Shown: piece by piece, positions 1-6,076 of the stretch
Layout: each line of letters begins with the position of its first letter
Numbering within the stretch: the first letter of the stretch is position 1
From: Candidatus Heimdallarchaeota archaeon
GTDB taxonomy: Archaea > Asgardarchaeota > Heimdallarchaeia > Hodarchaeales > Hodarchaeaceae
Direction of reading: 5' to 3'
Assembly (NCBI GenBank): GCA_048881705.1
Contig: JBHLSH010000008.1
Span: 10,728 to 74,727, forward strand
Length of the DNA: 64,000 bases
Program-made: the position numbers and the translations under genes
Notes under the pieces: generated by a model
Database searches by the model: none
What the model saw: only the letters and a program-made list of their open reading frames with translations
What the model was told of the DNA's origin: nothing

Positions 1-857
1 ACCGCTCCCAAGGGGATTAAACTATCAATAGATAGGAGTGATGTTGGCCCATTGCGGGGGATGAGGGCCATAATGAAAGACCCAATGAGGATGGAGCCAG
101 AATATGATATTAGCAAGCGATCCGAATATTTCTTGAACAGGACCAGTAAGAACGCGTGAAGAGCTAATAGGTTAAAGACATAAGTGGATGCTCCCCAGGA
201 GCCTGATAGTACACCTAGTGAGAGACCAGCAAAGATCGCACTGAAAATGGAATCGGTTCGCAAAGCTCGGGAGTAGAAATAGAGACTGAGAACTAGAAAT
301 AGAATTCCTAACCCTTCATTGTCAAAAAAACCTGCAGTGGTTCGCTGGAGATGGCCTGCAGAAATGGCCAGCAACAATGCTGACAAAAGCCCAACTTTCT
401 TATTGGCCAGTTCTTTCCCCAAGAAATAGATTGCCATGGTAGTCAAAGATCCCATAATCGCTGGTTGAAAATAGGCAATAACCCTTAACGGGATATCGAT
501 TCCTAAAAAGAGGGCCACTTCATGAAGAAAAACGGCAGAGAGAGGAGTGCCGAGGTATTGAGATTTCCCCCAATGCCGACCTTCGGGATACCAGGTCTGG
601 TTGTCTACCCATGACAGAAAGGCGAATAGTCCGTGCTCAGAAATATATTCAGCGGCCCGTAACTGGGAATAGGGATCATTGGCAGACAGGATTACTTCAT
701 ACTGAAAAAAAGGTAAAATTCGTAGAATGAACGCTATCACAAAAATGAGAACCAAAGAGGAGTAAAGAAAGAAATATTCTCTGGTAAAGGTCGTTGATGC
801 GAAATGGTACCGAGTTTTGAGATCATTGGCTATCCTAGTTACAAGGCCGTGTGCCAA
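1..857 (-). CDS. aglB: Oligosaccharyltransferase AglB/STT3, N-terminal part; runs off the window edge
   Basis: Absent from the ORF track. Manual minus-strand translation from TTG at 857 gives MAHGLVTRIAND...LRILPFFQYEVILSANDPYSQLRAAEY...WYPEGR...QRTTAGFFDNEGLG...SGSWGA, matching the STT3 N-terminal DP, WYPxGR, DNE and SWG motifs. An in-frame TGA lies just upstream of the TTG. Confidence 0.85.
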   Translation of the reverse strand, partial: MAHGLVTRIANDLKTRYHFASTTFTREYFFLYSSLVLIFVIAFILRILPFFQYEVILSANDPYSQLRAAEYISEHGLFAFLSWVDNQTWYPEGRHWGKSQYLGTPLSAVFLHEVALFLGIDIPLRVIAYFQPAIMGSLTTMAIYFLGKELANKKVGLLSALLLAISAGHLQRTTAGFFDNEGLGILFLVLSLYFYSRALRTDSIFSAIFAGLSLGVLSGSWGASTYVFNLLALHAFLLVLFKKYSDRLLISYSGSILIGSFIMALIPRNGPTSLLSIDSLIPLGA

Positions 858-906: not shown

Positions 907-1617
907 TTAATCTCGTAAAGGCACGAGATCGGAAATCGCGAGATAATCTTCCACGATGTGCAATTGATTCTCCTCTACCTTAATCAGGCCTTGTTTGCGA
1001 AGATTCGTGACATAATAAGAGATAAGGGCCCTACTATGTCCAGTAAACGCAACGAGATCCTTTTGAAGACATATCCCATTGTTATTTGAGATATGTGTCA
1101 GAATTGCGGCTATTTTGGGATTTCTGGTCAAAGCTAACCACGACTTTTCCTTAATCGAATAATGAGCAGAACGATCAAAGAAATGTCGACATCGGCCTAA
1201 TTTCATAGACTCAATAGTCATCTCCTTCAACTCAAGATTGTAAAGATGATATTGGATCACACCTAAAGCGAGATCAGTTTCTCTTTGGATTTCTCTAAGC
1301 GTGATTCCTGGGTTTTGCGTTATAGTCTCCTGTATTAGATCTCTATTCTTAGATAGTTTAGTTTCCTCACGAAAATGGTCTTGGGAGTCTAAAGACGTAT
1401 GTGCACCTAATAATATCATGACTTGATGTATAGAAGTCGCAGAAGATGAATTCGGAGATGTGATTAGATGAGAAAATTCAGTTCCCGTTGCACCAGATGT
1501 TGGCGATATTAAATATTGGAAATTAGAGAAAATCCCGATCATCACAAAAACTAAGACCATTAATTGAAGGAATTTTATAATCTTCGTCTTTGTGAGTTTT
1601 GGAAGGATTGTCTCCAC
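907..1617 (-). CDS. Winged helix-turn-helix regulator (COG3398-like, two wHTH units) with N-terminal hydrophobic segment
   Basis: NPGITLREIQRETDLALGVIQYHLYNLE and a second wHTH (QKDLVAFTGHSRALISYYVTNLRKQGLI); N-terminal hydrophobic stretch FLQLMVLVFVMIGIF; GTG start. Confidence 0.75.
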   Translation of the reverse strand: METILPKLTKTKIIKFLQLMVLVFVMIGIFSNFQYLISPTSGATGTEFSHLITSPNSSSATSIHQVMILLGAHTSLDSQDHFREETKLSKNRDLIQETITQNPGITLREIQRETDLALGVIQYHLYNLELKEMTIESMKLGRCRHFFDRSAHYSIKEKSWLALTRNPKIAAILTHISNNNGICLQKDLVAFTGHSRALISYYVTNLRKQGLIKVEENQLHIVEDYLAISDLVPLRD

Positions 1618-1769: not shown

Positions 1770-3263
1770 TTACAAGTAGAACTCTAGGATCCCAAACTTC
1801 CGACTATCATCATCCAGAATTTCACTATATCGTTTCAAAATAGCTACGCAAACATAGAGCCCAACCGCTGTTGTGAACAACCCAAGGATTTGTGCGATCA
1901 TAAGTAGCACTAGGAAACGTAAGCCCCAGGATCTGGCTGATCGTATTTGGTATGGTTGGTTATTTAGGATATCGTTATTGTTTTGCGAAAAACTGTCAAT
2001 CTTGAAGAACCCAATCACCGGTAGCATCATTAGGATATCAGCTCTTTCTGGATCCAATGGTTTTAAGATTTGACCCAAGAAGTAGATAGAGAACCCTACG
2101 AAAATCAAACCATACATAATTCCTCTAGTCAGAGCAGAGAGCGGATCCACGGGACTGATCAATCCCGAATCACCGATTAGTGATTGGGGGGGGGTTAATA
2201 AGTAAGCAAGTCCACTTTCGGGTACATATTGCCCGGAAACATGATCCGCTCTAAACGTCCCTAACAAAGAAACGAGGATATCGGGCGGCTTCTGGCCCCC
2301 ACTTGCACCTGCATTCCAAACCACCTGAGCCAGAAATGATATACTTGAGAACATGACCGAAGTTAAAATCACAGGAATAAGCAGAAAAAAAAGGATGTTT
2401 CCCTGATACTCGCAATCTTGCCTCTCTGTTGGTTGATCTTTGATGCATATCTTGAATTTAAAAGCTCCAATGTAGTTTAACAAGAGGAAAAAGATAATTG
2501 TAACCAAAAAGGACGATAGTGAATACGCAGGGAGGACTAGGTTATTTTGTGGATCATATCGAAACAATAGTGCCACTATTGCGGCAAACACGTTCTCTTG
2601 ATTGATCCAAGAAAGAAAAGCTAATATTAGGCCTCGATTTGATAAGATGTCGTTCGTACCCTCCAAAACCGCCTGAACAGAAAAAAGGTACATGAATAGA
2701 TCAAGACCTATTGTACTAAGGATAAATAGGGCTATCCCAGAACCATATCCCCATCCTTTAGAGATTATTTCATCTAGATAGATTGCGATAATTCCCCCTA
2801 CGACTAATTGGCCAAAGATAATTATCTGTCGATCTACGGTCAAGTTAACACCAAAATACTCGCCTAGCATCACTAAAAAGGCGCCAAGAATGGTAAAAGT
2901 GATTGCCATACCTTTAAGACTCGCATTATAGGCAGCCTTTCCTTTTACGGACGTAAAATCGTTGTTGATAGTTCTTCTAAGAAGGATGAATCGCATAATC
3001 AGGCCAGCTAGAAGAATCGGGAATATTCCTAATGTTCCCAAGTATCCAAGGGGCGGGGCATAAATCACCCTCAGGTAGGCAAAGGGATCTGCTTCTCCAA
3101 CGTGCGCTCCAATTAGTGGGATGGAGATCAGAAGCGAGTACGCCGCAAACACGATTAATGTCCAAGAAACCTTCTCTATAGGGGAAAGATCACGCGAAGG
3201 CCTTTTAACCGCGGGGAATATTGTTCCGATCCGTCCGAAGAATACAAGAAACATCTGAATCAT
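1770..3263 (-). CDS. secY: SecY/Sec61-alpha family translocon subunit, divergent paralog
   Basis: PAVKRP..EKVSWT..IPLIG, plug DPFAYLRVI, LGIFPI, IYLDEIISKGWGYGSGIALFI, GLAYLLTPP; about 10 TM segments. C-terminal half strongly divergent from canonical SecY. Confidence 0.85.
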   Translation of the reverse strand: MIQMFLVFFGRIGTIFPAVKRPSRDLSPIEKVSWTLIVFAAYSLLISIPLIGAHVGEADPFAYLRVIYAPPLGYLGTLGIFPILLAGLIMRFILLRRTINNDFTSVKGKAAYNASLKGMAITFTILGAFLVMLGEYFGVNLTVDRQIIIFGQLVVGGIIAIYLDEIISKGWGYGSGIALFILSTIGLDLFMYLFSVQAVLEGTNDILSNRGLILAFLSWINQENVFAAIVALLFRYDPQNNLVLPAYSLSSFLVTIIFFLLLNYIGAFKFKICIKDQPTERQDCEYQGNILFFLLIPVILTSVMFSSISFLAQVVWNAGASGGQKPPDILVSLLGTFRADHVSGQYVPESGLAYLLTPPQSLIGDSGLISPVDPLSALTRGIMYGLIFVGFSIYFLGQILKPLDPERADILMMLPVIGFFKIDSFSQNNNDILNNQPYQIRSARSWGLRFLVLLMIAQILGLFTTAVGLYVCVAILKRYSEILDDDSRKFGILEFYL

Positions 3264-3299
3264 GTTTTTTCCTCATTAGGATAGTTTTCGATACCCATA

Positions 3300-3500
3300 T
3301 TACCTAAATGATCTTCCTAGGATTAAAAAAACTATCACCCGGATCAAGAATGAGAATAATCCTAGGCCTCCAAATCCAATTGCAGTTTTTTGGATGAGCT
3401 TAATAACTTCTGATTTCGTAGGAGGATAGGGAACTAATTGAATTTTTCCGTTCCTCTTAGGTAATCTTAGATTTACCCTCTTCTCCTCTGAATTTTCCAT
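3300..3500 (-). CDS. secE: SecE/Sec61-gamma family subunit, divergent
   Basis: PTKSEVIKLIQKTAIGFGGLGLFSFLIRVIV matches the KPxxxEF..TAIGF..MG..GF..KLI pattern; 66 aa, one TM; 36 bp upstream of secY on the same strand. Confidence 0.72.
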   Translation of the reverse strand: MENSEEKRVNLRLPKRNGKIQLVPYPPTKSEVIKLIQKTAIGFGGLGLFSFLIRVIVFLILGRSFR

Positions 3501-3561
3501 TGATAAATCCCTAATACTCTGTTTTTTTGGGAATAAATATCCTCATCTAATCATGAAACGA

Positions 3562-3828: not shown

Positions 3829-4671
3829 ATGACATATGGTAATCCGACCCTAAATTTAGCATCGCCAGCACAAATCGAAATTCCGATAAAAATTGCCGGA
3901 TTAACCAAGAGTTACGGAACGGTGGGCGTCCTCGAAAATTTCGATTTAGTGTTAGACCATAAAGAGTGTTTAGGGATCATCGGCCCAAACGGAGCTGGAA
4001 AAACCACCCTCTTTAGATGTCTAATGGGATTGGTGAGAATTCAACAGGGAAATATTAACCTTCTAGGGCAAAGTGTGGTAACGAACGGAAAAATATCTCC
4101 ACAACTTCGTAGGATTCGGCCCAGAATAGGGTACGTACCAGAATCTTTAGAAATTTACTCATTTTTGACAGTAAGGGAATATCTTTGCTTCATAAGCAAA
4201 TTGTTTGTTTTAAGGGAAGATGAGTATAATCAGTATTCACGTTACCTAATCCGCTTATTTGAGCTAGAAGAGTGGGAAGAATCCCTTATCAAACATCTAT
4301 CAACGGGGAACTACCAAAAGCTAATATTATGCACTGCTTTGATTCATCAACCAGAAGTTCTTATTTTAGATGAGCCATTTTCAAATTTGGATATAAAAAC
4401 CAGAAAGAAAACAAAAAATATTCTTAAAAAGTTCATCAGTCGTGGAATACCAGAACTAGATATAGATGTGCCTGGTTCGATCATCATTGCTTCCCATATT
4501 CTCGCTGATCTAGAGGAATTATGTACACAAATAGCTCTTCTCCATTCGGGGAGGATAACTTGGAAAGGAACCATAGCGGAAATAAGGCAGGATCAAACTA
4601 AGGCAAGATCTTTTGAATCATTTGTTTTGGAGGTCTGGGACAATGAAACAGAAAAAGATTGGCAGGAGTAG
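3829..4671 (+). CDS. ABC transporter ATP-binding protein (ABC-2/CcmA type)
   Basis: Walker A GPNGAGKTT, signature variant LSTGNYQK, Walker B LILDEP, H-loop SH. Confidence 0.92.
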   Translation: MTYGNPTLNLASPAQIEIPIKIAGLTKSYGTVGVLENFDLVLDHKECLGIIGPNGAGKTTLFRCLMGLVRIQQGNINLLGQSVVTNGKISPQLRRIRPRIGYVPESLEIYSFLTVREYLCFISKLFVLREDEYNQYSRYLIRLFELEEWEESLIKHLSTGNYQKLILCTALIHQPEVLILDEPFSNLDIKTRKKTKNILKKFISRGIPELDIDVPGSIIIASHILADLEELCTQIALLHSGRITWKGTIAEIRQDQTKARSFESFVLEVWDNETEKDWQE

Positions 4672-6076
4672 ATTGCTTGTCCAATTTATGTGGCTAGAAT
4701 GCAAAAAACTGTCTAAATTCTGGGATGCGATCCCCAAAATATCCATTCTGCTATATTCGATGGTTTTTGTTGAGTGTCTCCTAGCGGCGGCTTTTGGTTG
4801 GTACTACCCATTATTCCTGCATAGTCATCCGCGAGCGCTTGTCATTTCAAGTCTGTTGGTATTATCAATAGGCATTTTTATATTCACTAGTAGTTCGTTT
4901 ATCGCTCCAAGTAAGGAGAGTTTTTTTGCAGCTAATCCCTTTCATGTTGATGAATCAGATCTGAATATTCTTTCACAAACGCTAAACGACCCCATATCCT
5001 GGGCCCTTATCGGGCTGATCCGAAATTCCCTCAAAGTATTACTATATGTAGTTTTCTTGGCGTTGATCATTGTTTCGTATGCATTTAGTGTCCAGATCCC
5101 TTGGCCAAACATAGTAATAGTTCTGGTTGCCCTTTATCTAGGGATCCAAGTCTTTATGTTCGCTGGATCGTTTGTATATAGTTTCACGGAGGAATTCTTG
5201 GAACAATTGAGACCAAGATGGCGAGAACAGAACTTTTCGCTTCTCAATAATGTTATTTCAACAGTTGCCATGATAATTGTTCTAGGTGGATTGGGGGTCC
5301 TGGCATTTATCGATACTTCTGAAGGAACTAGTTTCGTCATCTTAGAACAGATGGTTTTGGATTTGTGGTTCATTCCCCCTTTTAATCTCATTTATTTGGT
5401 TTTAGCGGCTCTTTCTAAGACATGGCCTCAAACCTACCTGATTCAAGCAATGATTAGTTTATTGTTCGAATGGGCAATGGCTCTCGGGCTTTTCTTTCTT
5501 ATCCACAGCAAAATCGATCCTTTAGCCCGGCTATACGAGAGACGACCCCTGGTAGATGCCCTCTCGGAGAGTTTCGATCTTGCTTTAGCAGGCTATTTCA
5601 TTTTCACTTCTATCTTTCAAAGTGGAGCCTCATGGTTTAAGTTTCTGCAATATAAGAACCAATTTCTCCATGAAGCAGTGAGTCTTCTCCAAAAAGACCT
5701 TCTTCTCCTCGATAAATATCGTATTTCCTTTACCTATACTCTCACAGTGCTAATATATGGCATTATTGTAGTTTTTTGGCTTGCATCGGCAGCTAATATC
5801 ATTCCCTGGTTTACTCCGGCCGGAATTCTCGCAATCATTGCTATTACAGTGTTTCTCTGGTTTAAAGAGTCAAGGCTTCTCGTCAAAAACCTCAAAATAT
5901 CGTTTAGGGCCGTATTAATGGAAAAACTATTTCTCTCGTTTTTTCTTTCCTGCTCTCTTCTTCTCGCGATTTTGATCATAAACGAAGGAACGTTGTTCCT
6001 AGGGGGAATAGTTGTTTATGCATTCAGTTTTATCTTCGGGCTCATCTATTATAGTATCAAGCCAATTCCATATTGA
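4643..6076 (+). CDS. Putative ABC exporter permease, multi-pass membrane protein
   Basis: About 10-12 hydrophobic segments; overlaps the ATPase 3' end. ATG at 4643 preferred to the track start at 4613. Confidence 0.65.
   Translation: MKQKKIGRSRLLVQFMWLECKKLSKFWDAIPKISILLYSMVFVECLLAAAFGWYYPLFLHSHPRALVISSLLVLSIGIFIFTSSSFIAPSKESFFAANPFHVDESDLNILSQTLNDPISWALIGLIRNSLKVLLYVVFLALIIVSYAFSVQIPWPNIVIVLVALYLGIQVFMFAGSFVYSFTEEFLEQLRPRWREQNFSLLNNVISTVAMIIVLGGLGVLAFIDTSEGTSFVILEQMVLDLWFIPPFNLIYLVLAALSKTWPQTYLIQAMISLLFEWAMALGLFFLIHSKIDPLARLYERRPLVDALSESFDLALAGYFIFTSIFQSGASWFKFLQYKNQFLHEAVSLLQKDLLLLDKYRISFTYTLTVLIYGIIVVFWLASAANIIPWFTPAGILAIIAITVFLWFKESRLLVKNLKISFRAVLMEKLFLSFFLSCSLLLAILIINEGTLFLGGIVVYAFSFIFGLIYYSIKPIPY

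Follow-up and report, generated by a model that had tools for sequence, protein, structure and literature searches.

A 64,000-nucleotide stretch of the genome of a Candidatus Heimdallarchaeota archaeon (contig JBHLSH010000008.1; the whole stretch is referred to as the window) contains two adjoining genes, secE2 and secY2, whose products resemble the SecE/Sec61gamma and SecY/Sec61alpha subunits of the protein translocation channel. The initial annotation had described them as an accessory secE-secY pair, and two co-directional open reading frames (ORFs) were indeed located next to each other (Table 1). The two genes are likely to form a bicistronic unit, and a TATA-like element upstream of secE2 may act as its promoter. 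The genome under study (G000) is a metagenome-assembled genome (MAG) of 155 contigs that is 91% complete with 7.5% contamination. Going by the source names of its closest database proteins, the organism would belong to Candidatus Thorarchaeota. G001 denotes a sister MAG, and the other G numbers denote species genomes of the same genus.

Table 1. Features at the secE2-secY2 locus (window coordinates).
Feature	Position	Strand	Description
secE2	3300..3500	(-)	66-aa SecE/Sec61gamma paralogue; first gene of the pair
secY2	1770..3263	(-)	497-aa strongly diverged SecY/Sec61alpha paralogue
secE2-secY2 spacer	3264..3299	(-)	36 nt; GAGGA Shine-Dalgarno-like motif ~8 nt before the secY2 ATG, read from the sequence
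secE2 upstream region	3501..3560	(-)	AT-rich TATA-like element ATATTTATT at ~3532-3540, ~36 nt before the ATG, read from the sequence
regulator gene	907..1617	(-)	236 aa; two winged-helix domains; 152 nt downstream of secY2
AglB/STT3 gene	1-857	(-)	downstream of the regulator gene; runs past the window edge (L069:9413-11584)
ABC ATPase and polytopic protein genes	3829-6076	(+)	280-aa ATP-binding cassette (ABC) ATPase and overlapping 487-aa polytopic protein without family match; divergent from secE2

SecY2 matched the NCBIfam model NF006341 with an E value of 1.8e-44 and 152.7 bits, which is below the cut-off of 300 bits but leaves the homology clear. It gave no match to the Pfam family SecY (PF00344) at E<=0.1, and a genome-wide scan with PF00344 reported only the copy on contig C73. 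SecE2 scored 16.4 bits against the NCBIfam SecE model NF006907, far under the cut-off of 99 bits; Pfam gave no match for it, and a genome scan with PF00584 did not list it at E<=1. The canonical genes were searched for elsewhere in the genome, and both were present, so that secY2 is not the only secY. A full-scoring housekeeping SecY (401 bits) is encoded on contig C73, and the window copy was the sole other match in the whole-genome scan. The housekeeping secE is located on contig C134 between rpoB and spt5. SecY2 shares 40% identity with the housekeeping SecY of G000, and SecE2 shares 43% identity over 51 residues with the housekeeping SecE (L066:480-689-; BLASTP E value, 2e-12). Seven residues of SecE2 (P27, E31, V32, T39, G42, G47, and R54) are invariant across 12 aligned SecE sequences. 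SecE2 has a single C-terminal transmembrane (TM) helix with the conserved core, and its N-terminal amphipathic helix is rewritten. These comparisons indicate that the window genes are a true second SecE-SecY paralogous pair beside the housekeeping genes. A second Sec61beta was not found in G000, which has one.

The accessory nature of the pair had also been argued from the lack of ribosomal-protein genes and adk nearby. This argument is not discriminating, because the housekeeping secY of the genus also lies outside the ribosomal operon: in all of the 20 genus loci examined, it was found head-to-head with the ribophorin I gene, not in an L30-L15-secY-adk ribosomal cluster. The conclusion drawn from it nonetheless holds. 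In G000, the housekeeping secY and the gene of a 700-aa ribophorin I homologue occupy L065:3604-7434 on C73, a conserved pairing of translocon and oligosaccharyltransferase (OST) genes. Contamination or mis-binning was rejected as the origin of the two SecYs, since the sister MAG carries both loci with the same flanking genes and the GC content of the contig agrees with that of the genome.

The AlphaFold2 (AF2) model of SecY2, whose input alignment was dominated by canonical SecYs, had ten long TM helices, with a predicted local distance difference test (pLDDT) value of 80.3 and a predicted template modelling (pTM) score of 0.81. Poor definition was limited to loop 8/9, the loop 6/7 tip, and the region of the plug. 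When the model was compared with the PDB by Foldseek, the top matches were all Sec61alpha or SecY (best E value, 1e-24), and the best Sec61alpha match gave TM-scores of 0.79 and 0.85 when normalized by query and target length, respectively. The yeast Ssh1 complex (PDB 2ww9) was among the matches. The ten-TM, two-half clamshell fold of SecY is thus retained in the SecY2 model. The predicted complex of SecY2 with SecE2 had an ipSAE score of 0.74, against 0.00 for the best control; SecYE being a textbook complex of solved structure, this score shows likeness to solved structures and is not proof of binding. Of 80 solved complexes, 58 attained this mark, as did 2 of 110 mismatched pairs. Agreement between the prediction runs extended to at least 84% of contacts; the partner had a pLDDT of 65. 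The predicted contacts lay on TM1, TM5, TM6, and TM10, as in solved SecYE, which corresponds to the classical position of SecE.

In order to map the gate, pore, plug, and ribosome-facing residues, SecY2 was aligned to human Sec61alpha using HMMER. The initial annotation had assigned Leu, Gly, and Leu to the three polar residues of the lateral gate, T86, Q127, and N300. T86 and Q127 were aligned with L85 and G127, respectively, as had been proposed. On the other hand, the FLLIP segment that had been taken to cover N300 pairs with YTSNIP, so that its Leu replaces N288, and N300 pairs with Ser307. The polar cluster is therefore disrupted, albeit in another way than proposed: two of its three residues are lost, and the third is Ser rather than Leu. 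Position 307 is occupied by Ser in G000, by Gly in G001, and by Asp in the housekeeping SecY. The polar cluster as a whole reads L85/G127/S307 in G000 and L/G/G in G001, whereas it reads T/E/D in the housekeeping copies and in the near-canonical second copies of sister species described below. The corresponding positions are T87, Q129, and N302 in yeast and T80, E122, and N268 in Methanocaldococcus jannaschii (PMC3518225).

The pore ring of SecY2 is entirely aliphatic (I80, L84, I177, I181, I299, and V471; I, V, I, I, I, and L in the housekeeping copy). The apolar patch of the plug, DPFAY(L/M)R, is kept, and 10 of the 11 conserved positions of the plug region are retained. Next to the plug, the human ASNRG is replaced by APPLG, as had been read by eye; the housekeeping copy has ASTQG at this place, and the confidence of the plug model is low (pLDDT values of 64 and 55 in the blocks covering residues 51-70). 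The TM10 motif, GSGTG in human Sec61alpha and GSGxG in housekeeping SecY/Sec61alpha generally, is TTAVG in SecY2, again in agreement with the earlier reading. The proposed loss of the Arg of loop 8/9 was borne out as well: SecY2 has no Arg at the position of R405, that is, at the PGWR/GHR position, and none of the nine conserved positions of this loop is kept. In loop 6/7, two of six conserved positions are kept, and K280 and R283 are replaced by Glu and Asp, respectively. The net charges of loops 6/7 and 8/9 are +3 and +3 in the housekeeping copy, compared with 0 and -2 in SecY2.

The distribution of identity along SecY2 is inverted relative to that of a normal SecY, in that the usually conserved segments are the most altered and the usually variable outward loops are the best kept. 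Identity in the SecY2 comparison was 47% in TM2b, 9% in loop 6/7, 13% in loop 8/9, and 18% in TM9, compared with the usual values of 93%, 55%, 48%, and 61%, respectively. The most altered segments were TM2b, TM3, loop 6/7, loop 8/9, TM9, TM10, and the C-terminal tail. In contrast, the outward loops L5/6 and L7/8 of SecY2 were 59% and 67% identical to those of SecY1, the housekeeping copy, while 27% and 30% are normal between classes. In sum, the cytosolic face and the gate are rebuilt, and the outward face and the channel core are kept. The synonymous sites between SecY2 and the housekeeping SecY were saturated throughout, with a proportion of synonymous differences (pS) of 0.72 to 0.88. Recent gene conversion was therefore ruled out as the source of the outward-loop likeness in G000, which reflects conservation at the protein level. 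An ancient gene conversion at the outward loops of the G000 SecY2 is possible.

SecY2 of G000 and its orthologue in G001 share 73% identity, and the ratio of non-synonymous to synonymous divergence (dN/dS) was 0.22 (proportion of non-synonymous differences [pN], 0.145; pS, 0.470; Fisher p, 4e-34). The ratio was 0.15 to 0.27 in the four quarters of the protein and 0.15 in residues 396-497, the rewritten C-terminal part. For comparison, the ratios were 0.056 for the housekeeping SecY, at a similar dS of ~0.7, and 0.15 for the product of the regulator gene. Every part of SecY2 is thus subject to purifying selection.

A SecY match was obtained in all 22 species genomes of the genus, and 12 genomes carry a second secY (secYb) adjoining a homologue of the window regulator gene. 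Seven of them (G003, G008, G010, G012, G013, G015, and G017) have a second copy whose motifs are all near-canonical, and in the other five, which comprise the G000/G001 clade and G002/G014/G018, it is strongly diverged. The near-canonical copies tend to resemble the housekeeping copy of their own genome even synonymously (e.g., dS of 0.33 in G008 vs ~1.2 between species), and they have likely been homogenised by conversion or arisen by later duplication. In the G002/G014/G018 lineage, the gate is hydrophobic (IMV, TML, ILI, LGI), and 33 residues of loop 8/9 and 7 residues of loop 6/7 are deleted. A second SecE was confined to G000 and G001 among 26 genomes searched, and a deep protein search with SecE2 recovered only SecE2 itself. 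The first SecY tree joined all diverged copies (Shimodaira-Hasegawa-like approximate likelihood ratio test value, 94) with long-branch warnings, and a tree without the G018 copies placed each diverged clade beside the housekeeping copy of its own lineage with no support. Because of the long branches, the trees cannot settle the origin of the diverged copies. Judging from indels specific to a lineage and from identities in sliding windows, each diverged clade belongs with the housekeeping copy of its own lineage and not with the other diverged clade, which favours at least two separate escapes over one shared origin.

Further forms of the gene were observed in single genomes. G018 carries three diverged extra SecY copies (L054, L055, and L056), all without loop 8/9 and with a C-terminal extension that contains an extra hydrophobic segment. 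One of them follows the regulator gene, after which an ABC ATPase gene and the gene of a 514-aa membrane protein lie on the same strand; another follows the gene of a tetratricopeptide repeat (TPR) protein, and two of the diverged copies are unlinked to the regulator. In G011 (L067, G011:C12:188500-199000, ~3915-5392), a SecY fragment (residues ~292-396) with three stops lies ~0.5 kb from a helix-turn-helix (HTH)-like ORF of 221 aa, apparently what is left of a second secY locus after decay. The only SecY matches in G016, a single contig (C1) of 70% completeness, were an N-terminal half at 1156359-1157147 and a C-terminal half at 619311-620267, ~537 kb apart (L049 and L050). They could be due to misassembly or represent a genuinely split gene.

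The regulator encoded downstream of secY2 has an N-terminal basic cluster of Lys and Arg, a hydrophobic helix of ~20 aa, a Ser/Thr-rich linker, and HVO_0163-type and MarR-like winged helices. Its Pfam matches were PF24266 (E value, 1.8e-11), HTH_24, and MarR_2. A TTTAAAA element is present ~28 nt before its GTG start codon, which suggests that the gene has its own promoter. There are only two PF24266 genes in G000, and the second HVO_0163-type gene, on C52, has no Sec neighbours. Across the 12 loci of the second secY, no neighbour other than the regulator gene was conserved throughout, and the N-terminal hydrophobic helix was present in 11 of them. The window regulator scored 132 to 154 bits against the HTH proteins of the near-canonical loci, compared with 73 to 79 bits against those of the diverged loci. 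The same order of Lys/Arg cluster, hydrophobic helix, and winged helices was seen in ten homologues, in L029, L032, L034, L038, L039, L042, L043, L046, L048, and L051. In the literature, HVO_0163 had one incidental mention only. The positive-inside rule would place the DNA-binding part of the regulator outside the cell. As a speculation, the location of the regulator could report on Sec activity and sense export capacity.

We consider it moderately probable that the products of secE2 and secY2 make up a channel of the SecYE type that is functional but re-specialised and to which ribosomes do not dock in the canonical manner. The initial annotation had proposed a second, specialised translocon or insertase that may work without ribosome docking. 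The paralogous pair, the constraint on secY2, the fold, and the loss of the basic loop residues and two gate residues agree with that proposal, while its N300 assignment and its context argument did not stand. The second secY locus would be ancestral in the genus and invariably accompanied by the gene of a membrane-anchored regulator with two winged helices. While staying almost identical to the housekeeping copy in most species, secYb would have diverged sharply in the G000/G001 lineage. The change appears to be centred on the docking platform (loops 6/7 and 8/9 and the C-terminal tail), the gate helices (TM2b, TM3, and TM7), and TM9/TM10. Kept, it appears, are the pore ring, the apolar patch of the plug, the interface with SecE at the back of the channel, and both of the large loops that face outward. 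This lineage presumably also gained its own SecE copy. SecY2 and SecE2 would then form a heterodimer with a sealed, gated pore and a housekeeping-like outward face, which would no longer dock ribosomes via the canonical loops. The more hydrophobic gate may favour the closed state, so that only strongly hydrophobic signals or anchors would be accepted, by analogy with yeast Sec61. There, Q129L and N302L stabilised the closed channel and raised the threshold of signal hydrophobicity while sparing the integration of a signal-anchor protein (PMC3518225). From such a gate it would follow that the channel serves a narrow set of clients or a special condition, possibly under the control of the neighbouring regulator.

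Several observations weigh against this interpretation. The loop alignments of SecY2 fall in low-confidence regions of the model, with pLDDT <50 at residues 276-282 and 402-436. Neither SecA nor Sec62, as a possible driver of transport independent of ribosomes, was detected in the 91%-complete genome: PF07517 (SecA_DEAD) gave only a sub-threshold score of 20.8 bits in a 939-aa frame, and Sec62 (PF03839) was not found at E<=0.01. The SecY2/SecE2 clade was known from two genomes only when 5.8 billion proteins were searched. The dN/dS of SecE2 was 0.88 overall and 0.55 in the TM part, which, over 66 codons, is not significantly <1. The sole orthologue of secY2, that of G001 (L029:6062-7555, contig C6), is interrupted by an in-frame TAG at codon 284 (TGC in G000), at the tip of loop 6/7. 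Moreover, relaxed constraint alone would also yield changes from polar to hydrophobic residues within the membrane.

Concerning the TAG, PylS and other pyrrolysine machinery were searched for and none was found, so that read-through with pyrrolysine was rejected and the G001 copy is taken to be broken or split. Nine codons past the TAG, an ATG begins a 204-aa frame with TM7 at its start. The G001 secY2 could be a pseudogene, contain an assembly error, or be split into halves of TM1-6 and TM7-10.

If the pair were a redundant duplicate drifting to loss, its odd residues would reflect relaxed constraint and not a new function. Such decay would account for the stop codon in G001, the omega of ~0.9 of SecE2, and the loss of polar residues in the membrane; it would also fit a non-synonymous evolution of SecY2 that is ~4 times faster than that of the housekeeping copy and the clearly decayed remnant in G011. 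However, the dN/dS of SecY2 (p = 4e-34) stays below 0.3 in every segment, including loop 8/9-TM9-TM10, and the 497-codon frame is intact in G000 despite a dS of ~0.74 to G001. Furthermore, the divergence is concentrated on specific functional surfaces and spares the TM4 positions, the pore ring, and the loops facing outward, and the only lesion in G001 falls in the loop under the weakest constraint. We regard decay of the pair as unlikely.

Alternatively, SecY2-SecE2 could be a co-translational translocon resembling yeast Ssh1, coupled to ribosomes via another docking surface or an adaptor and employed as a regulated isoform for certain clients or under stress. The near-canonical second copies of the seven sister species keep every docking and gate motif next to the same type of regulator and are presumably ribosome-coupled; neither SecA nor Sec62 was found in the genome as an alternative; and Ssh1, whose complex is among the fold matches, shows that a Sec61 paralogue can diverge and be bound to ribosomes. 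What makes this improbable, in our view, is the extent of the change on the docking side of SecY2, where all nine conserved positions of loop 8/9 and four of the six in loop 6/7 are gone, K280 and R283 have become acidic, the loop charges have dropped to 0 and -2, and the C-terminal tail is rewritten; the other diverged lineage deleted loop 8/9 altogether.

The regulator allows a more specific but rather doubtful variant, in which secYb is a self-monitoring spare translocon. The N-terminus of the regulator would itself be a Sec client; as long as export capacity suffices, the protein would be exported or inserted and so kept off the DNA, and at insufficient capacity it would remain cytosolic and switch on secYb, with the channel of G000/G001 being a ribosome-independent SecY2-SecE2 pore. 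If true, the bacterial monitors SecM, MifM, and VemP would have an archaeal counterpart that acts at the level of transcription, and the G000/G001 pore would imply an unknown drive for post-translational transport in an Asgard archaeon in which SecA and Sec62 were not found. The weakest alternative, a role outside transport in which SecY2-SecE2 acts as a membrane receptor or sensor that, for example, holds and releases the signal-anchor-like N-terminus of the regulator, would explain why an HTH gene is the sole neighbour conserved at all 12 loci, why its product diverges in step with SecYb, and why the N-terminus resembles a Sec signal anchor ahead of DNA-binding domains, but it is very unlikely, given that a mere receptor would not need the retained aliphatic pore ring and apolar plug patch and that plain transcriptional control explains the gene linkage equally well.

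The re-specialised channel can be compared with known systems. It shares the ten-TM fold, the aliphatic pore ring, the plug patch, and the predicted SecE clamp with housekeeping archaeal SecYE and Sec61alpha-gamma (M. jannaschii 1RHZ and mammalian Sec61), and its sequence clearly points to a derivation from the genus's own SecY. It differs from them in its family scores below the cut-off, its L/G/S gate, the absence of the basic loop residues, and its TTAVG and APPLG motifs. The plastid SCY2-SECE2 pair is likewise a second SecY with its own SecE paralogue coexisting with a housekeeping pair. It is bacterial-type and ancient and works with a SecA paralogue, whereas secE2-secY2 is archaeal and Sec61-type, was found with no SecA, is known from two species, and is linked to a regulator. 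The SecA2-SecY2 system of Gram-positive bacteria also contains a diverged extra SecY outside the ribosomal operon, thought there to serve a few special clients. That system needs SecA2, Asp proteins, and glycosyltransferases and adjoins its serine-rich glycoprotein client, whereas SecA2, Asp proteins, and glycosyltransferases are not present with secE2-secY2, and the adjoining AglB is specific to G000. Yeast Ssh1 is, like SecY2, a lineage-specific, faster-evolving Sec61alpha duplicate beside the essential channel. Ssh1 is a ribosome-binding channel and uses Sss1, the gamma subunit of Sec61, whereas SecY2 has lost its docking motifs and is encoded together with a separate gamma/SecE copy.

Examples of a second, specialised SecY channel are on record for Gram-positive bacteria, plastids, and yeast, and none was found for archaea in the searched literature, which describes Asgard translocons, also in work with ribosomes (PMC11417166), but not archaeal SecY or SecE paralogues. 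Asgard archaea possess the translocons most closely related to eukaryotic Sec61/OST. A single genus here presents a series from a near-canonical duplicate, through a loop-less, hydrophobic-gate channel or one with its own gamma subunit, to a decayed remnant, and this series could show on which features of Sec61 ribosome docking and gating depend and how translocon paralogues of the Ssh1 kind come about. Change in the two diverged lineages ran in parallel, the docking loops being substituted in one and deleted in the other, and the constant association with an unusual, membrane-anchored regulator suggests that the function is regulated. The clade itself is tiny, with two species, one of which has a stop codon in secY2. 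The present analysis adds a corrected residue map, the constraint on the intact copy, the inverted conservation, and a genus-wide, regulator-linked locus with several fates.

The remaining neighbours of the pair were considered as possible partners. The ABC ATPase and polytopic protein genes are absent at the corresponding position in G001, where a zinc-dependent alcohol dehydrogenase gene directly follows. The ABC ATPase was rejected as a conserved partner, being found at 3 of 14 loci with generic ABC similarity only and absent from G001. Permease-like neighbour genes were also rejected as a shared partner; they are unrelated. G001 has a single STT3, ~9 kb from its housekeeping secE. The idea that the pair forms a translocon and N-glycosylation unit with the adjoining AglB was discarded, as this AglB copy is a recent G000-specific duplicate outside the conserved module. 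The window AglB is 82% identical to the AglB encoded on contig C90 and keeps the WWDYGYW motif.

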